Of a stretch of DNA of 41,699 nucleotides, positions 2,951-36,960 are shown piece after piece. Positions within the stretch are counted from its first letter, which is position 1; every line of letters starts with the position of its first letter. Below the pieces are notes generated by a model. It was not told the DNA's origin and did no database searches. It was given only the letters and a program-made list of their open reading frames with translations. The translations under genes and the position numbers were made by a program. Source of the DNA: a virus (taxonomy: Duplodnaviria > Caudoviricetes); IMG/VR virus record IMGVR_UViG_3300046703_000022, positions 1-41,699 of that record, one strand, 5' to 3'.

Positions 2951-3427
2951 ATGGCACTTAAGGAAGAAATAAGACAATTTACCGATAATGAAATAGAAAC
3001 CATATTGAGATCATACCCGCGACTAAAAGGGCAGAGCGAAATAATTAGAGAACAATTATTTGGTCTATTCCCTAGTTGTGTGGGATGCGGAAACGATGGA
3101 CAACCTAAAGCAGTAGGAGGAATTAGTAGACAAACTGAATCGTACGGCATTAAGAACGCTGTAAATAGAGAATATTTGCAAGCTAAGGTAAAACAGACAG
3201 TAGACCAAGTAAGGAGCATAGAAATAGCCTATGAAGCGTTACATAGTGATGGTCAGTCATTGGTTAAATGTTACTATTACAATAAAGAAAGACGTTATGA
3301 GGTTCAATCTAGTATGAATATATCAGACAGACAGTTTGATCGTATTAGGCGTGAAACTATCAACACAGTTAATGCAATATTATCAATGTCATTAAAAGGT
3401 GACGATAAAGTGGGCATATTGTCGTAG
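2951..3427 (+). CDS. ArpU/RinA-family late transcriptional activator
   Basis: IETILRSYP N-terminus, C-terminal HTH (MNISDRQFDRIRR); position before the packaging genes; GGGGA RBS. Confidence 0.75.
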   Translation: MALKEEIRQFTDNEIETILRSYPRLKGQSEIIREQLFGLFPSCVGCGNDGQPKAVGGISRQTESYGIKNAVNREYLQAKVKQTVDQVRSIEIAYEALHSDGQSLVKCYYYNKERRYEVQSSMNISDRQFDRIRRETINTVNAILSMSLKGDDKVGILS

Positions 3428-6992: not shown

Positions 6993-7322
6993 TTAATCGA
7001 TTCTTCGTATTTTACCGTATTGGTTTTGTTCTTCCTGTTGTTTTGATTTTTCATAACTTTTTTTCTTTATCCATGATAAAACTTCATGCAAATTAAAAAA
7101 TACTCGCTTACCAATATTGAACGAAGGACAATTTTCTTTTTGTCTCATTGTTCTAACCGCTGTATATGATATACCTAATTCTGCAGCTAGCTCCTTTTCG
7201 TTTAAAACTCTATTGCTTATAGGTATTGGCTCTTGTCTATCTTCTTTTTCTAATACCTGTGAGAAGTGGTTAAGTGCTGTGCTTAATTGTTTTACGGCAT
7301 AAATTAATTCTTTATTATCCAT
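6993..7322 (-). CDS. Excisionase-like HTH_17 DNA-binding protein
   Basis: VLNEKELAAELGISYTAVRTMRQ...PSFNIGKRVFFNLHEVLSWI; AAGGAG RBS; TG-T-TATAAT upstream on the minus strand. Confidence 0.75.
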   Translation of the reverse strand: MDNKELIYAVKQLSTALNHFSQVLEKEDRQEPIPISNRVLNEKELAAELGISYTAVRTMRQKENCPSFNIGKRVFFNLHEVLSWIKKKSYEKSKQQEEQNQYGKIRRID

Positions 7323-7408
7323 ATGTAGCAATCTCCTTTCTAGTTACTTTTTTATTATAACACCTTAATAGATTACTTTTTATTTCGCAAAAATGAAGAA
7401 GGTGTAAT

Positions 7409-11138: not shown

Positions 11139-12161
11139 ATGTGGGTAAATTATGATCCAACTGCATTTCTGGAAATGGGAGCAGAGGTAAAACCGACTAA
11201 ATATATTTATGTTGGTAAAAATGGTAATGATACTCTTGGAGATGGTAGTGCAAATTATCCGTACTTAACAATATCAAAAGCGTTTTCAGTTGCTTTAACT
11301 GGGTCTACTGTATTTACTTTTCCTGGTACTTATGCAGAAAATTTAACATTTGTTTCTGGTGTAAGCCTTGTAACTTCCACTAAGTTTTCGGTATATGTAA
11401 CAGGTAATCATGTTGTAAATGTTACTGGAACCTTAGTAGTTGAAAACATTATATTGCAATCAACTACAGGAATTACATTAACATTTTCAGGTACTGGTGT
11501 ACAAAACTTTCAACTAATGGGATCTAGTGTTAATTCTAGTAGCGGAGATGCTATTAATTGGACTAATACTAATGCTGCAAGCAAGATATATTTTGAAGAT
11601 GGTACCTGCAATGTAACTACTTCTGGTGCAACTGCAAGGTGCTTTTACAGTACAACAGGTGCAGCAGGTGGATTAATAGCAAATAGAGTAACTTTTAAAC
11701 TAGATAATTATGCAAATACTTGTTTGTCAATTGGCGGTGCAGTTTCGTTTAATCATACATCTGATGCTGTATATGGAAAGATAGTAGTATCAGGAACAGC
11801 GTCAACATCTTTCACAATGGTTATGATGACAACTACAGCAACAGCAGTATTAACAACTAATTCATCGGGAACAACTGCAATAGCAGAAGTAGTGGCAGTA
11901 ACGAGTGCAACACCTGCCTTTGACGGAGCAGGGGTATTTGCATTTTTTGCAATTGGTTATGGAAGTACCGGAGTTGGCGGAGCTGCAACATTAAATGGCG
12001 GATTTGGAGCGTCACCGTTGACTATGGCACCAATGAGACTACGTGCAGCAACTTTACTTCCTGCTGGTGCGGTGGCTGCTGGATTATTAGGCGGTACATT
12101 TGAATTTGACGGAACAAACTTATATTTTACAATTGGGACTACTAGAAGTGTGATTGTATAA
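11139..12161 (+). CDS. Beta-helix-like structural protein (DUF1565-like N-terminus), possible head fibre/spike
   Basis: YVGKNGNDTLGDGSANYPYLTISKA...PGTYAE; T/G/S/A-rich; GGGGG RBS. Confidence 0.6.
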   Translation: MWVNYDPTAFLEMGAEVKPTKYIYVGKNGNDTLGDGSANYPYLTISKAFSVALTGSTVFTFPGTYAENLTFVSGVSLVTSTKFSVYVTGNHVVNVTGTLVVENIILQSTTGITLTFSGTGVQNFQLMGSSVNSSSGDAINWTNTNAASKIYFEDGTCNVTTSGATARCFYSTTGAAGGLIANRVTFKLDNYANTCLSIGGAVSFNHTSDAVYGKIVVSGTASTSFTMVMMTTTATAVLTTNSSGTTAIAEVVAVTSATPAFDGAGVFAFFAIGYGSTGVGGAATLNGGFGASPLTMAPMRLRAATLLPAGAVAAGLLGGTFEFDGTNLYFTIGTTRSVIV

Positions 12162-12173
12162 GGAGGTGATTTT

Positions 12174-12308
12174 ATGCCATTAAAAAAAGGTTCAAGCCAA
12201 AAAACAATATCCCAAAATATTAAACATGAGATGAATAAACACCCTAATATGAAACAAGATCAGGCGGTTGCGATTGCAATGTCCAAAGCTGGTAAGTCTA
12301 AAAAATAA
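12174..12308 (+). CDS. Small basic phage protein (44 aa, not in ORF track)
   Basis: AGGAGGTG RBS; [20 protein letters not shown]...[15 protein letters not shown]. Confidence 0.75.
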
Positions 12309-12353
12309 TAAGGATGGTGATCCTCATGCGTAAGCATGGGCAATAGCATCAAC

Positions 12354-12386
12354 AAGCAACTATCAAATTGGTAGTTGCTTTTATTA
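12354..12386 (+). terminator. Putative terminator before the scaffold gene
   Basis: AAGCAACTATC-AAATT-GGTAGTTGCTT followed by TTATT. Confidence 0.6.
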
Positions 12387-12411
12387 TACCTATTTTTAAG
12401 GAGGAAACGTA

Positions 12412-12981
12412 ATGCTAGAAGAAACAGAATCAGTGGCACAAGATAACACTATTGCCATTGAAACGCAAACAACTGATGCAACTGTTGAAACTACGTCAAC
12501 AGAACCAACCACAACGACTGAGCAGGTAGTAGAACCGCAAGTAGAAATTACTGGAGCACCTGAACAATATAATGACTTCACTATGCCAGAAGGTTTTAGC
12601 GCACCTATTGAGGACTTCAAGTCTTGGGCGAAAGAAAACAATATGACACAAGAAGTAGCACAGTCGGCAGTTGATTTTTATACTACCAAAGTTGCACCAA
12701 TACAACAAGCGCAACACGAAGCGCAAGTTACAAAATGGACAACTGAAAGTACAGAAAAATACGGTAATAAAGGAATCGAAGCAGCTAACAAAGCGTTAAG
12801 CCGTTTTTCTACTCCTGAATTTACTAATTTTCTTAAAGAAACAGGATTAGGAAATCATCCTGAAATGGTAGGAATTTTCAATACCATAAATGCAAAGATA
12901 TCAGAATCGGGATTTGTTGATGCAAAAACAGCATCTGTAAATAAACCAATGTTCCCAAATAGTCCAGATATGTATAAATAA
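12412..12981 (+). CDS. Capsid scaffolding protein
   Basis: Acidic N-terminus, APEQY.DFTMPEG, LKETGLGNHPEMV; immediately before the capsid gene. Confidence 0.8.
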   Translation: MLEETESVAQDNTIAIETQTTDATVETTSTEPTTTTEQVVEPQVEITGAPEQYNDFTMPEGFSAPIEDFKSWAKENNMTQEVAQSAVDFYTTKVAPIQQAQHEAQVTKWTTESTEKYGNKGIEAANKALSRFSTPEFTNFLKETGLGNHPEMVGIFNTINAKISESGFVDAKTASVNKPMFPNSPDMYK

Positions 12982-12995
12982 GGAGGAAAAAATAA

Positions 12996-14018
12996 ATGGT
13001 AAATAAAATTAACTTTGATCTTCAATTATTCGCAACAGTAGGCACTGGCGTTATGACAGCGCAAGATATTAAGTCAATGGTGGGGCCTGATGGATTAATG
13101 TTAAATATCGTTGAGACATTATTCATAGAAAATCAAATTTTAGAAGATGTTGTATGGAAAGAAGGAAATCTTCCTACTGGTAATTTAACAGGAGTTAGAA
13201 CTAGTATCCCACGTCCTGGTATTCGTATCCTAAATCAAGGTGGTAATCGTAGCAAGTCCAGTTACAAACAAATTACTGATACTTGTTGTATCTTGGAAGA
13301 CAATTCAGAAGTTGATGAAGAAGTATTAGAACTAGCAGCAAATAAAGAAGCCGTTAGAGCAAGTGACATTGTAGGTCATGCAGAAGGATTCAGAGAAAGT
13401 GTAGCTGATATGTTTTTCTATGGTAGCACAGATGCTAATGATGGAGAGTTCAATGGACTTGACGTTCGTTATAATAAAACGTCTGCTACTAAAACAGATC
13501 CTGGATATCAGATTGTATTAGATACAGGAGCAGCCAATGTTAATACTTCTGCTTGGATTATTGATTGGGGCGATAGAAACGTTGTAGGTATTTATCCAAA
13601 AGGTACACAAGCAGGATTACAAACTAGGGACGTTGGAAGAACCCGCATTGAAGATAATTTAGGAAATCCACTATATGCATGGTGTACAAATATGAAGTGG
13701 AAGGTTGGTTTAGCGGTTGAAAACTATCGTAAAGTTGTAAGAATGGCAAATATTGATACAACACCTGCAACACTTAATGCCAATACTACACTTCTTAAAC
13801 GTTTAGTAACCGCTAAAAACAGATTATATTTACCATCTAACCCTATTATGTACGTAAATAATGATCTTTATACGTGGTTAGAAATCCAACTTACTGACGT
13901 TGGTAACCAGTATGTTACTCAATATACCGTTATGGGTAAAACACCACAGTTGTACTTCAAAGGTATTCCGGTTCGCAAATGTGATTCTATTTTGTCTACC
14001 GAAGCAACATTAGTTTAA
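12996..14018 (+). CDS. Major capsid protein (BPP-1 Bbp17-like)
   Basis: NQILED..W.EGN...RTSIP, EFNGLDVRY, FKGIPVRKCDSILSTE; N-terminal NFDLQLFA. Confidence 0.9.
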   Translation: MVNKINFDLQLFATVGTGVMTAQDIKSMVGPDGLMLNIVETLFIENQILEDVVWKEGNLPTGNLTGVRTSIPRPGIRILNQGGNRSKSSYKQITDTCCILEDNSEVDEEVLELAANKEAVRASDIVGHAEGFRESVADMFFYGSTDANDGEFNGLDVRYNKTSATKTDPGYQIVLDTGAANVNTSAWIIDWGDRNVVGIYPKGTQAGLQTRDVGRTRIEDNLGNPLYAWCTNMKWKVGLAVENYRKVVRMANIDTTPATLNANTTLLKRLVTAKNRLYLPSNPIMYVNNDLYTWLEIQLTDVGNQYVTQYTVMGKTPQLYFKGIPVRKCDSILSTEATLV

Positions 14019-14040
14019 TAAAAAAAGGAGGAATTTATAA

Positions 14041-14457
14041 ATGATTAGAGATGCGTTTAATATTTATTCTGATTTACAGGCAGTAACGGTTACTGCTGAT
14101 TCCACAAATACAATTGATCAATTAAAAGCAGGTGACACATATTGTTCTATGTGGTTACGTGTTAGGGTTGAAACCGCTTTTGCTGGTGGTACAAGCCTTA
14201 CTGTTAATCTTTTAACTGCTGACGATACATCGTTTAGTGTTAATTTAAATACTTTCCCGGTATTGGCTACTACTGTTACGGCTAATTTGACAGGAGATAC
14301 AGTATTATGTCAATTCAGAATACCACCTGGGATGCGCAGATATAGTAAGTTAAATTATGTGGTAGTTGGAACAATGTCAGCAGGTACTATTAATGCTGAA
14401 TTGGTTACTGATGTTCCTAATAACCGTCGTGGTACTAAATTAGGATACATGGGCTAA
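14041..14457 (+). CDS. Capsid cement/decoration protein (Bbp16-like)
   Basis: SDLQAVTVTADSTNTID...RRYSKLNYVVVGTMSAGTINA. Confidence 0.75.
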   Translation: MIRDAFNIYSDLQAVTVTADSTNTIDQLKAGDTYCSMWLRVRVETAFAGGTSLTVNLLTADDTSFSVNLNTFPVLATTVTANLTGDTVLCQFRIPPGMRRYSKLNYVVVGTMSAGTINAELVTDVPNNRRGTKLGYMG

Positions 14458-14738
14458 TGATAACTTATAAATGTATAACAGAATGTACATGGAATGGCAG
14501 GCGTTGGCGTGAGGGTGATATAACAAGCCCTTACGGTGACGATGTTGCTGTGCCAGAACATTTCATTATTGGAACAGATGACAATGAAAATACCGAATAC
14601 GAAGAAGACACCGAAGATACAACCGAAGACGAAATAAAACGTGGTTTTCGTGGTAGTTGGAAACTTCCAAATGGTGATGTTTTCACAGGTAAACGAGAAG
14701 AAGCTAGAATTCACTGGAATAAAATAAAGAATAATTAA
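14457..14738 (+). CDS. Hypothetical virion-module protein
   Basis: Coupled TAATG start; acidic linker. Confidence 0.6.
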   Translation: MITYKCITECTWNGRRWREGDITSPYGDDVAVPEHFIIGTDDNENTEYEEDTEDTTEDEIKRGFRGSWKLPNGDVFTGKREEARIHWNKIKNN

Positions 14739-14743
14739 TGGTG

Positions 14744-14770
14744 GGGAGATTTATTTCTCCCCTATTTATA
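14744..14770 (+). terminator. Putative terminator after the head genes
   Basis: GGGGAGA-TTTATT-TCTCCCC followed by TATTTA. Confidence 0.5.
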
Positions 14771-14786
14771 TGGGGGTGAATATATA

Positions 14787-15377
14787 ATGTCTACATCAAA
14801 AACTGACATATGTAATTTAGCGCTTAGCCGTTTTGGGGCTGGGAAGATCAATTCCCTAGATGACGGTACAGAAACAGCTAGATTACTTGATTTAAATTAT
14901 GATAATTGCCTAGAATCGGCACTGAGAGATTTCCCCTGGAACTTTGCACGTAATATACGTGTTCTTGCATTAACAGATGATACCGCTGTTGGATATGATT
15001 ATGTATATCAATATCCTGCTAACTGTGTTAATATTTTGCGAGTTTATGCAGAAAACAATTCTCGTAAGAAAGAAAAAGACGAGTTTAAAATATTTACCAA
15101 TGGTGAAGAAAAGTTTATTGCTACTGATGTTGAAGATGCTTACGTTGAATTCACATACAAGGTAATCATCCCAGATATATATGATTCTTTATTTGTTAAG
15201 GCGCTTAGTTATCAATTGGCTGCAGAGATTGTTAACGCTAAGAATGGTAATTCACAAAAGGCACAAGAAATGGCTCAGAAATATCAAATTGCAATTGCAG
15301 AAGCTCAACACATGGGAGCAGTAGAAACAAGTATACCTTTTGAATTACCTACGTCATACCTAAAAGGAAGGTCGTAA
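14787..15377 (+). CDS. Tail tubular protein A (adaptor, T7 gp11-like)
   Basis: DICNLALSRFGAGKI...FPWNFAR...YQYPANC...FVKALSYQLA. Confidence 0.85.
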   Translation: MSTSKTDICNLALSRFGAGKINSLDDGTETARLLDLNYDNCLESALRDFPWNFARNIRVLALTDDTAVGYDYVYQYPANCVNILRVYAENNSRKKEKDEFKIFTNGEEKFIATDVEDAYVEFTYKVIIPDIYDSLFVKALSYQLAAEIVNAKNGNSQKAQEMAQKYQIAIAEAQHMGAVETSIPFELPTSYLKGRS

Positions 15378-15378
15378 T

Positions 15379-18228
15379 ATGTCTAATATTTACGTCAAAC
15401 AATCTTCTTTTGCTAATGGTGAAGTTAGTTATGATATGTGGGGTCGTGATGATTATGCCAAGTACTTTGTAAGTGCTAATATATTAGAAAACTTCATACC
15501 GCTTCCGTACGGTGGAGCGCAGAATAGACCAGGTACAAAGTTCATTGCAGAGGTAAAAGATTCATCAAAAAAGGTGAAACTTTTACCTTTTCAATTCAGT
15601 GTAGAGCAGGCGTATGTAATAGAAGCAGGAGAAAATTATTTTAGATATTATAAAGACGGCGGTCAGATAATTGATCCAGGTATTAGTGCAATTGTTGAGA
15701 CAACTACAACATATGATGAAGATTACTTATTTAATTTAAAAACGGCACAATCTGCCGACACTTTATATTTATGCAATCCAAATTACAAACCTAAGACATT
15801 GACTAGATCAAGCCATTATGACTGGACATTAGCTGATTTTTCGTATGAAAACGGACCATTTAGAGTACAAAATATTACAGATACAACCATTACGCCTAGT
15901 TCTATGGTGGGAACAGGAATAACCTTAACAGCTTCAACTAGCATATTTACAGCAGATCAAATAGGTTCATTATTCCAAATTAGTCATGATGTAACTAACC
16001 AAATTATTAATAAGACTTTTACATCAACGACAGCAACAGATTCAATTAAGTGTAATGGATCATGGGCAATGATTACGCATGGATCGTGGGCAGGTAAAAT
16101 ATCTTTGCAATGGTCTAAAGACAGTGGAGCAACTTGGCAAACGATTAGAACATATACATCTAATTCAGATACAAATGTTAATGACTCAGGAAAAACAACT
16201 GAACTTGTAATGTTGCGCCTGAATTATTCTAAAACTTCTGGCACATGTTATGCTGATTTAAACGCATATTCATTTGTCAATGATGGAATTGTAAAAATTA
16301 CAGGAGTTACGAGCGGTACAATAGCCATTGCTGATGTATTAACTAGACTAGTTGGTAATGTAACAGTAGCAGGGAAAAGAAACTACACAACCACTGTTAA
16401 TTTTATTGCTGGTGACACATTCACTGTAAATGGGGTAACTTTTACAGCAACGGTATCAACTTCATCACCAACTCAATTCATCGTATCTGGAACGTTAAAT
16501 ACTACGGTAGCTAATTTAGTGGACAGCATGGAACTGAATACTTCAATCTCAAGCCTTTATAGTGTTGGTGCTAGTAGTGCAATAATTACCTTGACTGAAT
16601 TAGCACCAGGAGAAGGTAATACTCCAGGATTATCCACTACAATAGGTACAGGAACAGTGACAAACGGAACAGAAACAACTAGTTCATCAACCGTTCTTCC
16701 CACTAAATATTGGGCAGAGGGCGCTTGGTCAACTAAAAATGGTTACCCAAGTTGTGCTAAATTTTATCAAAATAGATTGGGATTTGCAGGTAGTATAAAA
16801 GATCCATTAACATTATGGTTGTCGCAAACAGGAGACTATCCAAACTTTCTTGTTAATACTCCTACAGAGGATTCAGATTCTATAACAGCACCGCTTGTCA
16901 GTGAGGGCGTAAACTCCATTAGGTCAATGGTATCTATCGGTAATATGATTGCATTTACTGCAGGTGGTACGTGGAAGATAGGCACTGGTAGTGAGAGCGC
17001 AGCATTAACTCCTACAACTGTTAGAGCGTTGCAACAGGGATATATAGGGGCTTCTATACTTAACCCAATTATAGTAGGTAGTAGAATTTTATATTGTCAA
17101 GAAATGGGTAGCACCATAAGAGATATCAGTTATCAGTTGGCTGATGATGTATACAAGGGTGACGATATGACCATGCTGGCACGTCACTTATTCAAAAATC
17201 ATGAGATTGTTGATTGGGCATTCCAACAAGAACCTGACGGAATCATATGGGCAGTAAGAGAAGATGGTGTGTTGCTAAGTTTTACTTATAATAAAGAGCA
17301 AGACGTGTATGCTTGGGCTAGACACATTACTGACGGAGAGTATGAGAGTGTAGCCGCCATACCAGGTAATGGTTACACAGAGATATACTTTGTTGTTAGA
17401 AGAGAAATAAATGGAGTATATAAAAGATACATTGAAAAGTTAGTTCCTAGAATGGTATCGACTGATCCTAGAGATCAATTCTTTGTTGACTGTGGACTGA
17501 CATTAGATAATCCTATTACGATCACAGGAGCAACTAAAGCGAGTACCATTGTAATTACTGCCGTTGCTCATGGTCTTGTAAATGGGAACTTTGTTGACAT
17601 ATCAGACATTAAGGGAATGACAGAATTAAACGGTATGCGTTATAAAGTTGCTAATAAAACTAACGATACATTCCAACTAGTAAATATGGACACTGATGCT
17701 AACATTGATGGTACAAGTTATACCTCTTATAAATCAAGTGGATATGCTAGAAAGTGTGTTCTTACGGTATCTGGTTTAAATCATTTAGAAGATAAAACAG
17801 TAACGATACTTGCTGATGGTAGTGTGAATAGCCAACAGGTAGTATCTGGTGGAAGTATAACTCTTGATGATTACGCTAGTAGGGTACATGTGGGGCTAGG
17901 ATATGATTGCAACTTAGAAACTCTTAACCTAGACTTTCCGATGAAGGATGGCACTGTACAAGGACGTACAAAAGCAATTAGAAACGTTACCGTTAGATTT
18001 GCTAATACTTATGGTGGTTTTGTTGGAACAAATGGAGATAGTAATTTAGAGGTAATAGAACAGATATTATCTTCTATTATGGGTAAACCAGGAGATTTAT
18101 TTACAGGAGACAAAAAGTCTTCACCAAGATCAGATTTTGACACTAACGCAACTGTATATATTAGGCAATCTGATCCATTACCAATGACTGTACTAGCAAT
18201 TATGTCGGAGGTGGAATTCGGTGCTTAA
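15379..18228 (+). CDS. Tail tubular protein B (nozzle, T7 gp12-like) with inserted beta domains
   Basis: SFANGEVS, NRPGT, GYPSCAKFYQNRL, WARHITDG, VHVGLGY, QSDPLPMTVL. Confidence 0.88.
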   Translation: MSNIYVKQSSFANGEVSYDMWGRDDYAKYFVSANILENFIPLPYGGAQNRPGTKFIAEVKDSSKKVKLLPFQFSVEQAYVIEAGENYFRYYKDGGQIIDPGISAIVETTTTYDEDYLFNLKTAQSADTLYLCNPNYKPKTLTRSSHYDWTLADFSYENGPFRVQNITDTTITPSSMVGTGITLTASTSIFTADQIGSLFQISHDVTNQIINKTFTSTTATDSIKCNGSWAMITHGSWAGKISLQWSKDSGATWQTIRTYTSNSDTNVNDSGKTTELVMLRLNYSKTSGTCYADLNAYSFVNDGIVKITGVTSGTIAIADVLTRLVGNVTVAGKRNYTTTVNFIAGDTFTVNGVTFTATVSTSSPTQFIVSGTLNTTVANLVDSMELNTSISSLYSVGASSAIITLTELAPGEGNTPGLSTTIGTGTVTNGTETTSSSTVLPTKYWAEGAWSTKNGYPSCAKFYQNRLGFAGSIKDPLTLWLSQTGDYPNFLVNTPTEDSDSITAPLVSEGVNSIRSMVSIGNMIAFTAGGTWKIGTGSESAALTPTTVRALQQGYIGASILNPIIVGSRILYCQEMGSTIRDISYQLADDVYKGDDMTMLARHLFKNHEIVDWAFQQEPDGIIWAVREDGVLLSFTYNKEQDVYAWARHITDGEYESVAAIPGNGYTEIYFVVRREINGVYKRYIEKLVPRMVSTDPRDQFFVDCGLTLDNPITITGATKASTIVITAVAHGLVNGNFVDISDIKGMTELNGMRYKVANKTNDTFQLVNMDTDANIDGTSYTSYKSSGYARKCVLTVSGLNHLEDKTVTILADGSVNSQQVVSGGSITLDDYASRVHVGLGYDCNLETLNLDFPMKDGTVQGRTKAIRNVTVRFANTYGGFVGTNGDSNLEVIEQILSSIMGKPGDLFTGDKKSSPRSDFDTNATVYIRQSDPLPMTVLAIMSEVEFGA

Positions 18229-29232: not shown

Positions 29233-29804
29233 CAAATGAAGAACTTGCAAAAGAAATAGCACTAGGTATTATCAATACAGGTGTAGAAGGTGGCTATGAC
29301 AACGTGTGTTGCTCTACAGCAGGAGATTACCCTTGCATGGGTGTTTCGTCATGGGAAGGAATAAACGGGCGTGGTGATGCTTTACTGTCCTGTATAGATG
29401 GTGGACAAAAGTTTATAGGTAGAACATATAGCGATATCAGAGATAATGGAGAAAGGCAAGAACTAAAAAGTTTACTCAATTCAGAGCAAGGACAACTAGC
29501 ACAACAGGCTATTCTTACACAAGATTGCCTTGATTTATATGTTCCAGTACTGAATGAAGTTGAGAATCTTGATGATAGTAAATGTTTTATTTATGCTGGT
29601 ATATGGTGTCCTACTTCTCACTATGTTGTAAAAAACTTCTTGCGTAAACGCCAAGACAATCATGATATTAGAAATATAGAAGAATTAAAGGATATTTTCC
29701 GTGATCAATATTATATTGCTGCAGATGTGGGTGACCAATATGCAGAAGGGTATGCAAACCGAGCAGTAAACACTTATGACTATGTGAGTAATTTATCATG
29801 TTAG
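29229..29804 (+). CDS. Putative endolysin (lysozyme-like)
   Basis: Between holin and spanin-like genes; GVEGGYD.V...GDYP.MGVSSW, GYANR. Confidence 0.65.
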   Translation: MTNEELAKEIALGIINTGVEGGYDNVCCSTAGDYPCMGVSSWEGINGRGDALLSCIDGGQKFIGRTYSDIRDNGERQELKSLLNSEQGQLAQQAILTQDCLDLYVPVLNEVENLDDSKCFIYAGIWCPTSHYVVKNFLRKRQDNHDIRNIEELKDIFRDQYYIAADVGDQYAEGYANRAVNTYDYVSNLSC

Positions 29805-30181
29805 ATAAAGCGAAGGAGTTTTTACAAAATGAAAAGAAGTATATCATTATTGCTATTGTGTTGCTTGTTGTTGGGATTGTCGCCTGGGATGTGTTCAGCA
29901 AACCAAATGGATCAGCAGAAATTGGAGAGGTTAGATCAAATCTTCAATCAGTTGGAGACGAACAACAGCGAACAGCTGATGCAATTGCAGAAAGTAAACG
30001 ACTTGCTGAACAACTCAGACAAGCAAATATTAGAATTGAACAAGCAAGTAACAATATCCAACAGTCAAATAACTCTATTAGAAGCACAGTTGACCAAAGC
30101 GAACAGCTCAATAAGTCAAGCGCAGACCTCATTGCGGATGGCAAACGAATCGTTAAGCAGTTACGAGAAGAAAACAAATGA
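29798..30181 (+). CDS. i-spanin (Rz-like)
   Basis: N-terminal TM (YIIIAIVLLVVGIVAW) plus long coiled coil; follows the lysin. Confidence 0.65.
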   Translation: MLDKAKEFLQNEKKYIIIAIVLLVVGIVAWDVFSKPNGSAEIGEVRSNLQSVGDEQQRTADAIAESKRLAEQLRQANIRIEQASNNIQQSNNSIRSTVDQSEQLNKSSADLIADGKRIVKQLREENK

Positions 30182-30254
30182 TGAGATACGCTCTTTGAGA
30201 TTGCAGAGGGATGTAGTTATTGTGGGGATTGTAGCGTTATTGTTTAAAAAGTGA
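29829..30254 (+). CDS. Overlapping spanin partner (Rz1-equivalent)
   Basis: +1 frame inside the previous gene; AAGGAG RBS; signal peptide, coiled coil, C-terminal hydrophobic tail. Confidence 0.6.
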   Translation: MKRSISLLLLCCLLLGLSPGMCSANQMDQQKLERLDQIFNQLETNNSEQLMQLQKVNDLLNNSDKQILELNKQVTISNSQITLLEAQLTKANSSISQAQTSLRMANESLSSYEKKTNDEIRSLRLQRDVVIVGIVALLFKK

Positions 30255-30579: not shown

Positions 30580-31773
30580 ATTTTAGCAATAAACCATATA
30601 CATCAAACGTGTTTATCACCTAATATTCATTTAAATAAGATACATCAAAGTGGAAAAGGATATATATCAATAGCACAAAAGCAAAGCAAATGGAAAGAAA
30701 AATATTATAGTCAATCTGAAATGGCTACGGCCGTAAATGATTGGTCAGGTAATGATATATATACTTCTCAAAATTGCTTTACTGGCCGGCGCCGGTCGTT
30801 AATGACAATAGAACAATTAGAGAACTTATATATAGATATTGATTGTTACAAAAACAATTTTACTCCTGAACATGCTTTATCGTCTGTAGAATACTTGGCC
30901 AATGAAGGTGATATACCATACCCTAGCATGATTGTAATGTCCGGCCGAGGGTTGCAGGTTATATGGAATATCATTCCTGAGCCGGCCGACAAAATACCAG
31001 TATGGCAAGACGTAGAAAACTGGTTATATGGAGAGTTAAAACATCTTGGCGCTGACAAGCAAGCAACAGACGTTGCAAGGGTGTTAAGACTATGCGGAAG
31101 TTATCATAGTGTAACAGGAAATCAAGTCCATTCTTTTGAATATCACGACCGGCCATTTGATCTTGGCCAACTACATGAAACATACATACCGGCGCCAATA
31201 TATAAGCCGATAAAGAAAACTACTGGCCGGCCGGCCAACGTAAAACATTTATTTACTCTTCATTCTTTGTTTTGGAATAGATTGCAGGATATTTGGCACT
31301 TGGTAACTATGCGTGATGGACAGTGTGAAGGAAATAGAGAAATGATATTATTTCTCTATCGGTATCATTCTTGTTGTTTTACTAGTGATCCAAAACAATC
31401 TTTGGCAGATACGTTAGATTTAAATAGTAGATTCCGGCCACCATTGCCAATAAATGAAGCTACTAACGCTACAAAGAGTGCAGAAAGGGCCTATGTAAAG
31501 GACAAGCATTATAAATTCAAAACACAAACAATTATTGATATGCTTGATATTTCCGATGATGAACAAATAGAAATGAAAAATTTGATTAGCAAGAAAGAAA
31601 AGTACCGTAGAAATAATATAAAAAGAAATACTGGCGCCAATACCAATAAACTAAAATCGGTAATTGATTTGTATTGTAGTGGGGTAAATAATGTTAGTGA
31701 AATAGAGAGAGTTACAGGAGTTACTAGAAAAACAGTTAGAAAATATATAGCGGATTGGAATAAGGGTGGGTAA
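30580..31773 (+). CDS. rep: Plasmid-type replication initiator (pIP404-like Rep, primase-like fold with C-terminal HTH); probable ATT start
   Basis: Open frame from ATT30580, 8 nt after AGGAGG; GYISIAQK, DIYTSQNCF, LYIDIDCY, SGRGLQVIW, DVARVLRL.GS, GNREMILF. Confidence 0.8.
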   Translation: MLAINHIHQTCLSPNIHLNKIHQSGKGYISIAQKQSKWKEKYYSQSEMATAVNDWSGNDIYTSQNCFTGRRRSLMTIEQLENLYIDIDCYKNNFTPEHALSSVEYLANEGDIPYPSMIVMSGRGLQVIWNIIPEPADKIPVWQDVENWLYGELKHLGADKQATDVARVLRLCGSYHSVTGNQVHSFEYHDRPFDLGQLHETYIPAPIYKPIKKTTGRPANVKHLFTLHSLFWNRLQDIWHLVTMRDGQCEGNREMILFLYRYHSCCFTSDPKQSLADTLDLNSRFRPPLPINEATNATKSAERAYVKDKHYKFKTQTIIDMLDISDDEQIEMKNLISKKEKYRRNNIKRNTGANTNKLKSVIDLYCSGVNNVSEIERVTGVTRKTVRKYIADWNKGG

Positions 31774-31836
31774 TAAATGCTTCTATAATTAGTAACCAAT
31801 CCTATAGCGTAATTATTATACAGAGGTGGCCAAAAC

Positions 31837-32169
31837 ATGAGCAAAAAGTTTTACGGATTAAAAAGGGACGATTACGAAACGGCCGTAATGTTTATTCAGC
31901 AATTACAGGAGGTTTTCCCCTTAGCATTTCCTAAAAAACCTAAAGATAAAGTACCTTTGATGATAGGAATAGACGAACAATTGTCTAACGAATTTAAAAT
32001 TGACAAGAAAATAATTAATAACTCTTTGAAGTTATGGTGTTGGGGTGGCCGGTACAGATCAGCATTATCTATTATAGGCGCCGGAAGGTTAGATTTGTAT
32101 GGTAATAAAGTAGGATTTGTATTAGATGGCCAACAGCGACCGGTAAATAATAAAAATAAGGTGGTTTGA
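31837..32169 (+). CDS. ProQ/FinO-family RNA chaperone
   Basis: FPLAF...PLMIGI...LKLWC.GGRY...GAGRLDLYG..VG.V matches the FinO-domain signature. Confidence 0.85.
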   Translation: MSKKFYGLKRDDYETAVMFIQQLQEVFPLAFPKKPKDKVPLMIGIDEQLSNEFKIDKKIINNSLKLWCWGGRYRSALSIIGAGRLDLYGNKVGFVLDGQQRPVNNKNKVV

Positions 32170-32366: not shown

Positions 32367-32437
32367 TCTTAAAACGTTCGCAAAAGCATTTACAAGTATG
32401 TTAAAGTGTGATACAGTATAATAAAGGTGGTGAATTA

Positions 32438-32614
32438 ATGGATAAACTTTTAGATCCAAATCAGGTGGCTGCAATACTTAATGTATCACCTAAGACTGTC
32501 AGAGACTGGTTGAGAGCAGGTAAATTACAAGGGGTGAGAGCGGGTAAGTTATGGCGAGTAGAAAGCACAGAAGTCGGCAGATTTATCGAAGAAAATAAAA
32601 GTAAACGAAAATAA
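32438..32614 (+). CDS. Excisionase-like HTH_17 DNA-binding protein
   Basis: LLDPNQVAAILNVSPKTVRDWLRAGKLQGVRAGKLWRV. Confidence 0.85.
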   Translation: MDKLLDPNQVAAILNVSPKTVRDWLRAGKLQGVRAGKLWRVESTEVGRFIEENKSKRK

Positions 32615-32615
32615 G

Positions 32616-33017
32616 TGTAAAATTTAAAGAAAGATTGAACATAAGTTGTTTAAATTAGCTTAATTTATTGGTATTTTTTTAAAAGAAAGTTTGAACAAAT
32701 AAAAGGGAGAAGGAAAATGGAATATCAAGAAGGTCAACCATGCCCCGCTTGTAATAGCGATAAAATATCTATACTTCAGACTAGGCAGGTAATTTGGGAA
32801 GTGAATTTAAGCACTGACAAATTAATTAGAAAAGAAAAAGATGGAGCTATAGAATTTTGGCAATATAAATGCAGAAAATGCGGATGGATTAGTGAAAGTT
32901 TTCAAGAATAACGCCTAGTGTATATTTCTTGTTCAAACTATCTTTCAATAAAGTTCAATCTTCCTTTTAAGTATTCAAACTATCTTTAAAATGTACAAAC
33001 TTAGTTTAAAACTAACA
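32616..33017. mobile_element. Non-autonomous Tn7-like mini-transposon (402 bp) with one cargo gene
   Basis: TGT...ACA ends; ATAAG TSD (32611-32615, 33018-33022); 18-bp repeats: 2 at the left end, 4 inverted at the right end. Confidence 0.8.
32717..32911 (+). CDS. Zinc-ribbon cargo protein
   Basis: CPAC...CRKC; AGGGAG RBS. Confidence 0.75.
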   Translation: MEYQEGQPCPACNSDKISILQTRQVIWEVNLSTDKLIRKEKDGAIEFWQYKCRKCGWISESFQE

Positions 33018-33034
33018 ATAAGGATGGTGGGAAA

Positions 33035-33322
33035 ATGATTATACCAACAAGAGAAGTTATTAAACTACAAGAGTTTTTACTTAGTGAGACTTATCGCGTA
33101 TTAACCAGACAAAATCAAATTGACTTGATGCAAACATTACGAGCAGAATGGCAAAAGGTGGATGAACTAACTGAAATGTTAAAACTATTAATTGGGATGT
33201 GTGAAAGTATTGGTACATTTAAAAATGGTGTAGAGTATCAAGGGATGGACCAAGGAGACGTTCAAGCGGATCAAGTTTTATGTGATGCTAGAAATTTATT
33301 AATTGACCAAAAAACAACATAA
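33035..33322 (+). CDS. Hypothetical protein
   Basis: GGATGGTGGG RBS; co-oriented array. Confidence 0.6.
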   Translation: MIIPTREVIKLQEFLLSETYRVLTRQNQIDLMQTLRAEWQKVDELTEMLKLLIGMCESIGTFKNGVEYQGMDQGDVQADQVLCDARNLLIDQKTT

Positions 33323-36780: not shown

Positions 36781-36960
36781 GTGCAACAATATATGAAGTT
36801 AAGTGAAGCAGCTAAGTTGATTAACATGAGTGTCCAGTCAATGTATACACTTTGTAATTCAGGTAAATTCCCAGTGCTAAAGATTCCAGCAGGTAAGTCA
36901 TTCACTTACAGAATACACAGAAATGGTTTTGAAGAATGGATTAAAGAAAACAGTAATTAA
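36781..36960 (+). CDS. Cro-position HTH_17 regulator (59 aa, not in ORF track)
   Basis: AAGGTGGTG RBS with GTG; MKLSEAAKLINMSVQSMYTLCNSGKFP...FEEWI. Confidence 0.75.
   Translation: MQQYMKLSEAAKLINMSVQSMYTLCNSGKFPVLKIPAGKSFTYRIHRNGFEEWIKENSN

Follow-up and report, generated by a model that had tools for sequence, protein, structure and literature searches.

A putative 402-bp Tn7 derivative around a phage-family gene in a tailed phage genome

Tn7 ends, laboratory mini-Tn7 and the targeting of phage by TnsE are already known. In the parts of the literature consulted, Escherichia coli Tn7 is described with three left-end and four right-end sites (PMC9308760), its ends confer target immunity (PMC9308760, PMC11014353), and TnsE directs it into replicating plasmids and filamentous phage (PMC4678854, PMC11406308, bioRxiv 10.1101/154229). 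The related donor mini-Tn6022, which has TGT/ACA tips, is moved by proteins supplied in trans (PMC11014353). The transposon resident in prophiGD20-1, which must be lost for lytic growth (PMC8092298, PMC9934374), is not called Tn7 in the text consulted (PMC8092298). No natural mini-Tn7 in a phage genome turned up in the titles and abstracts searched, a set that lay largely outside subscription papers and the supplements of Tn7 surveys, and surveys anchored on tnsB (PMC8649781) would miss such elements by design. The locus described here lies in a window (the whole stretch of DNA that was analysed, 41,699 nucleotides) that is an entire 41.7-kb virus record rated 98% complete. It holds a 402-bp natural pair of Tn7-type ends around a phage-family gene in a tailed phage, an arrangement that did not turn up in the literature searched and is apparently new.

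The insertion, its empty allele and its architecture

Reading of the sequence places the element at 32616-33017, 402 bp between two copies of ATAAG. Its parts and flanking genes are as follows.

32438..32614, + strand: upstream phage gene, HTH_17, excisionase-like; intact flank outside the element
32611-32615, + strand: left ATAAG copy of the target duplication, carrying the TAA stop of the upstream HTH_17 gene
32616-32618 and 33015-33017: TGT and ACA tips, as in the Tn7 family
32616..32705, + strand: Tn7-type left end, TGTAAAA tip, two predicted TnsB sites
32623..32640, + strand: predicted TnsB site L1 (motif match)
32679..32696, + strand: predicted TnsB site L2, 56 bp after L1 (55 bp in the mini element L049, see below)
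32703..32716, + strand: purine-rich stretch, putative ribosome-binding region of the cargo gene
32717..32911, + strand: cargo gene, 64-aa zinc-ribbon protein with two CxxC
32925..33017, - strand: Tn7-type right end, TGTTAGT tip, four contiguous predicted TnsB sites
32931..32948, - strand: predicted TnsB site R4 (motif match and end alignment)
32953..32970, - strand: predicted TnsB site R3 (motif match and end alignment)
32973..32990, - strand: predicted TnsB site R2 (motif match and end alignment)
32993..33010, - strand: predicted TnsB site R1, identical to R1 of element B in genome G446
33018-33022, + strand: right ATAAG copy of the target duplication, restoring TAAGGA before the next gene
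33035..33322, + strand: downstream phage gene, 95 aa, no family; intact flank outside the element

The upstream HTH_17 protein, used as a query, recovered four loci, among them a related phage (L001) at 97% identity in which a single ATAAG (3174-3178) lies between the same two genes and the flanks are identical to those of the window at 95 of 100 positions on either side. Contigs of three sequencing runs (X2, X3 and X4, which represent at most two samples of one study) likewise join both flanks and skip 407 bases, that is, 402 + 5, with the shorter side covering 50 nt. The filled form is also present in run X1, in one 43-kb contig, and X1 may be the source of the window. As these relatives lack the 402-bp stretch, it is an insertion, accompanied by a 5-bp duplication. 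Only 13 nt separate the two genes at the target, and in the empty allele the upstream stop codon and TAAGGATGGTGGG are contiguous; through the duplication the left-hand gene retains its stop codon and the right-hand one its TAAGGA, so that neither flanking gene loses anything. The initial annotation had proposed the ATAAG|TGT...ACA|ATAAG junctions with two left and four right 18-bp sites, the restoration of a stop codon and the next gene's ribosome-binding site on removal of the element, the absence of gene disruption, and a single-ATAAG empty site in relatives; the junctions and sites proved exact, both flanking genes are intact, and the alleles of L001 and of the three runs agree with the rest. 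A promoter-like site at 32389-32417 falls within chance counts (5 found against 3.4 expected).

At both ends the first 18-bp site starts 7 nt inside the tip, and the four right-end sites, all on the - strand, follow one another at spacings of 22, 20 and 20 bp. With up to three mismatches allowed, the 18-bp motif has seven matches in the window, six of them inside the element, whereas shuffled windows have a mean of 1.15 and none of 100 reaches seven, in a test that is partly circular because the motif pattern was derived from these copies. Support for the predicted sites that is independent of the shuffling comes from homologous ends elsewhere. The identity of R1 with its counterpart in G446 element B indicates that its departure from the consensus is conserved and does not reflect decay. 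The asymmetric arrays claimed as a Tn7 hallmark hold for the right end with its four contiguous sites; at the left end there are only two, one fewer than in E. coli Tn7, and a search for a third found none even at 6 bits, the left end resembling L049 in this respect. No terminator was found within the element.

Relatives of the two ends

The right end is identical, without gaps, at 82 of 93 positions to the end beside tnsA in L067, a canonical glmS-targeting Tn7 that carries tnsABCDE, and at 80 of 93, again ungapped, to the four-site end of element B in G446, in line with the Tn7-like character first proposed for the ends. In L067 the TGT end sits 24 nt after the stop codon of glmS (identified by NCBIfam) and is followed by four sites and then by tnsA, tnsB, tnsC, tnsD, a metallophosphoesterase gene and tnsE, the tns genes each scoring over the Pfam cut-off; the metallophosphoesterase gene, between tnsD and tnsE, occupies 16738-17457. 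All four sites are spaced identically in the homologous ends. The homology stops a few nucleotides inside site 4, before the hairpin and tnsA start of the full element. A truncated TnsB in G446 is 91% identical to that of L067 over 289 residues. The end directly upstream of the tnsA/tnsB' pair of G446 that most resembles L067 is only partial (43/88), and the four-site end lies 4.3 kb away from that pair. Comparison with the remaining 15 distinct tnsA loci (20 rows with duplicates merged, including the G446 copy with the partial upstream end) gave identities of only 21-53/88. These low scores argue that the right end is specific to one Tn7 lineage, and by its sequence we assign it to the glmS-site lineage encoding TnsA-E. 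As the ends differ by ∼12% from the closest Tn7, L067 is to be regarded as a relative and not as the donor.

More distantly related is a glmS-site Tn7 with two tnsD genes (L052; 77% over 79 bp), in which two tandem TnsD/TniQ genes occupy 12121-15571 and no tnsE match occurs within the stretch examined. TnsB matches were present in 19 of 351 genomes of the LpxB-positive Bacillota class, which we take to be Negativicutes. The nearest named TnsB proteins include those of Anaerosinus (73%) and Pectinatus (52%), and the Tn7s of Bacillus and Staphylococcus, with a TnsB identity of 42%, have a different end site. The G446 locus itself (L103; G446:C14 2464-19818) contains stacked Tn7s behind glmS: the first element, 11.2 kb long, has both of its ends and duplicated ATTTT; next comes a second right end, in which the start of tnsA has decayed, and this is followed by ∼4 kb of other genes and a partial right end with tnsA and truncated tnsB. 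One gene in this ∼4-kb stretch is presumably lpxB.

The IS21, Mu-like and Tn5053/Tn552-type families have TG/CA tips and repeated transposase sites in common. The ends could accordingly derive from one of these TG...CA families, the element being a MITE thereof, and the tips and repeated sites shared by Tn5053 and Tn552 (PMC8649781) would suit such an origin. We regard it as highly improbable, as every autonomous context in which homologous ends were encountered is a tnsA-tnsB pair at glmS (L067, G446 and, more distantly, L052); all gene-bearing homologous ends precede tnsA-tnsB, and none was found next to istAB, MuA or a tnsA-less tni module. That the element is a Tn7-derived insertion of some kind thus appears nearly certain.

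The left end has a different closest relative, a gene-less 149-bp mini element (L049) found in the metagenome that also yielded L067; its tips are TGT/ACA and GCTAT is duplicated around it. L049 (323-471) carries 2 + 2 sites and lies between genes, away from glmS. One of its ends resembles the first two right-end sites; the other is identical to the phage left end at 26 of 29 positions at the tip, and the similarity extends ∼9 nt beyond site 2. The local alignment score of the left end against L049 is 80, compared with a maximum of 48 in 2000 shuffles. A left end of this type was not found on a tns-bearing element in 15 genomes of the G446 family or 401 genomes of the class, and matches only L049; the L067 locus and the G446 contig stop short of their left ends. 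Five weak L049 matches outside G446, viewed through four loci, were not end-like. The ends thus do occur elsewhere, as the initial annotation had anticipated (the right one in L067 and G446, the left one in L049), and for the autonomous tnsABC parent that it had postulated the right end has a relative in L067, while the search for the left end on an autonomous element gave none.

Copies of the ends around other cargo, also predicted, failed to appear: neither a second insertion of the 402-bp unit nor a copy with another gene was found in the searches of viral contigs, GTDB, metagenomes and genomes. In viral contigs the end patterns returned no loci, three loci (tandem repeats) and 15 loci (single sites), none of them an element. 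A GTDB-wide pattern returned 26 loci, none with a TGT-anchored end; this pattern missed the real G446 end and is therefore not exhaustive. On metagenome contigs a pattern of invariant positions also gave 26 loci, of which three were informative (L049, L052 and L067) and 23 were discounted as repeats or chance matches. A Clostridiaceae genome has, at two places (L017 9998-10053 and L028 9998-10061), arrays of at least three similar 18-bp repeats with no TGT tip. BLAST of the element against named phages and plasmids gave no match, and its DNA matches one of the 15 family genomes and one of the 401 class genomes, G446 in both cases. A search with the L067 TnsB found no relative in viral contigs and four weak matches in named phages. 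None of the data sets listed as containing the sequence was an RNA set. The tnsA-E genes of L067 matched short pieces only in contigs of runs X1-X4, contigs that cannot show absence.

The carrier phage, the cargo gene and routes of entry

The phage encodes terminase, head-tail adaptor and major head genes together with a plasmid-type Rep, which is 37% identical to Clostridium plasmid Reps over 98% of its length and which we take to be of the pIP404 type (NC_001388), and a ProQ/FinO gene. The replication protein gene and then the ProQ/FinO gene occupy 30721-32169, in the same arrangement as in L001. Neither a tyrosine integrase nor a large serine recombinase was found in the phage or its relative, so that the phage combines virion genes with a plasmid-type Rep and a lack of integrase, as phage-plasmids do. 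Three separate HTH_17 (excisionase-like) genes lie at 6993-7331, 32438-32614 and 36781-36960 in this phage in which no integrase was found. Two overlapping ORFs in different frames follow the lysis genes (29798-30254), presumably an inner and outer spanin pair, which would fit a diderm host. Elsewhere in the phage, DNA identities of 67-84% link it to four of the 15 genomes of the G446 family, in a comparison made with no control family; this shared DNA places the phage and the Tn7 in the same host group. The carrier is likely a phage-plasmid of Negativicutes, and the plasmid-type Rep, the ProQ/FinO gene and the lack of an integrase suggest that it resides as a plasmid prophage beside a host Tn7.

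No tblastn match of the five Tns proteins (E 0.01) occurs in the window, whereas the controls L052 and L105 do match, which bears out the earlier view of a transposase-less element; in sequence terms it is a non-autonomous Tn7 derivative lacking TnsA, TnsB, TnsC and a target selector. Nor is the insertion site an attTn7. The window flanks match the last 36 nt of glmS at 17-19 positions, compared with 26-28 among real glmS genes, and the best such match anywhere in the window is 21-23/36. With flanks so unlike glmS, entry by way of TnsD is improbable.

We lean, by a little more than an even chance, towards excision of the 402-bp unit from other DNA and its joining into the phage as a unit by the TnsABC proteins of a host Tn7; its delivery as a whole in trans, with TnsE the likely guide, we hold at about the same slightly better than even probability. 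By the known Tn7 pathway, TnsB would bind the six predicted sites and cut the 3′ ends, TnsA would cut the 5′ ends, and TnsC with TnsE would choose replicating extrachromosomal DNA; joining with a 5-bp stagger would then yield the ATAAG duplication. TnsE enters this scheme solely through exclusion of the glmS site. The element may have persisted because it is small enough to package and lies in a 13-nt gap with the stop codon and ribosome site kept, and by the same token the cargo would be expressed as one more gene within the phage operon. That a single filled site is seen counts against this reading, and movement of the 402-bp unit in trans with the gene already inside is an inference.

The cargo ORF (64 aa, with its own ribosome site) occupies the space between the ends and runs the same way as the phage operon. 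Searching with a profile returned 33 matches, and in an alignment of 16 of these with the three closest proteins (P0002, P0003 and P0004) four cysteines, one tryptophan and one serine are invariant. The structural model is a confident all-beta zinc-ribbon-like hairpin (pLDDT 90). No family over the cut-off was found in Pfam, PHROG or NCBIfam, nothing under E 0.2 among PDB sequences and nothing at E 0.001 with Foldseek. Hints of a Lar-like protein are weak (phrog_599 at E 0.09; PF14354 in 2/19 members, best E 0.003; Foldseek E 0.03-0.4), and in the structural comparison (VIA) the best Z of 3.2, with the RAZR complex, AcrVIA2, NrdR and TFIIS tied, is too weak to use. The protein might be a zinc-binding accessory factor acting on the host early in infection. 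One member of its cluster is labelled Caudoviricetes, and the profile matches gene 42 of Bacillus phage 268TH008 (E 5e-15) and one IMG/VR phage (L139; E 8e-14). Searches of viral contigs with the protein or a three-sequence alignment found no relative, and P0037 as a query gave three loci, one of which contains a family member. The profile matches none of the 401 host-class genomes, among which there was no positive control. Membership of a phage gene family and the lack of such matches suggest that the cargo was taken from a phage and not from the host.

The relatives in 268TH008 and L139 stand in ordinary phage operons with no Tn7-type site nearby, and this invites a different order of events, in which a gene-less mini element like L049 landed first and phage recombination later put a phage gene between its ends, the gene itself never having travelled by transposition. 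Such a gene-less element does exist in this lineage, and the phage encodes a Sak4-like annealing protein. We nevertheless judge this order quite unlikely: no allele with ends and without the gene was seen, L001 and the contigs of the three runs being fully empty; neither the window nor G001 contains a donor for the element interior; and recombination must have spared all six sites.

Alternatively, a full-size Tn7 may have inserted at ATAAG with its own enzymes and then shrunk there, as the genome had become too large for packaging, so that both ends and one gene beside the left end survived and no movement in trans took place. Such a history would account for a right end that stops just before the tnsA control region and for the single filled site, and a prophage that needs to lose an 8.4-kb transposon for lytic growth has been described (PMC8092298). 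We consider it unlikely, if worth serious attention, as the interior consists of one clean gene and ribosome site with no tns remnant, the cargo family occurs in phages and in none of the 401 host-class genomes, and a 149-bp element stands alone in the lineage, although L049 may also have shrunk.

If delivery of the unit in trans is nonetheless correct, natural mini-Tn7s may be a general route by which phages acquire morons. A bolder and fairly unlikely extension is that minimal Tn7 ends serve as a phage-to-phage shuttle that captures single promoterless genes and also shields the phage. Host TnsABC and TnsE would drop captured genes into co-resident phages and phage-plasmids, and the six predicted TnsB sites would give target immunity against full-size Tn7. 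By analogy with the immunity conferred by Tn7 ends, the element may protect its phage from large Tn7 insertions; were this so, an excluded full-size Tn7 would be one that overfills the capsid or brings anti-phage cargo.

Significance and comparison with known systems

The locus preserves a naturally occurring Tn7-type insertion into a tailed phage, and direct tests are possible because its empty allele, a cognate tnsABCDE element and a sister mini element are all available. If the unit moves in trans, transposon ends would offer phages a route to single accessory genes, and one that spares operons and packaging limits. With 2 + 4 sites in about 90 + 93 bp the end pair is very compact, and integration tools could be built on this Tn7 for the diderm Bacillota group from which it comes.

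Bacterial MITEs are small, non-autonomous elements with transposase-binding ends and a target duplication. L049 fits this description fully, whereas the phage element has coding capacity, in the form of an intact 64-aa ORF from a conserved family; MITEs are also known from several dispersed copies, and of the phage element one filled site was seen. With Tn7 it shares the 5-bp duplication, the four contiguous right-end sites and the spaced left-end sites (PMC9308760, PMC11406308, in the text consulted), as well as a right end homologous to that of a natural glmS-site tnsABCDE element. Unlike Tn7, it lacks tns genes, has two left sites in place of three, resides in a tailed phage away from attTn7, and measures 402 bp as against a median of 14-29 kb for Tn7-like elements (PMC8649781). 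The 8,452-bp transposon of M. abscessus prophiGD20-1 is comparable in that it inserted naturally into a phage genome, duplicated 5 bp and has relatives with the empty allele, but it is large and breaks a gene, while the 402-bp element breaks none (PMC8092298, as far as consulted). The closest likeness in layout is to laboratory mini-Tn7 and mini-Tn6022 donors, in which only the ends surround a passenger gene; in contrast to these, the phage element is natural, its passenger belongs to a phage gene family, and its mobility is putative.
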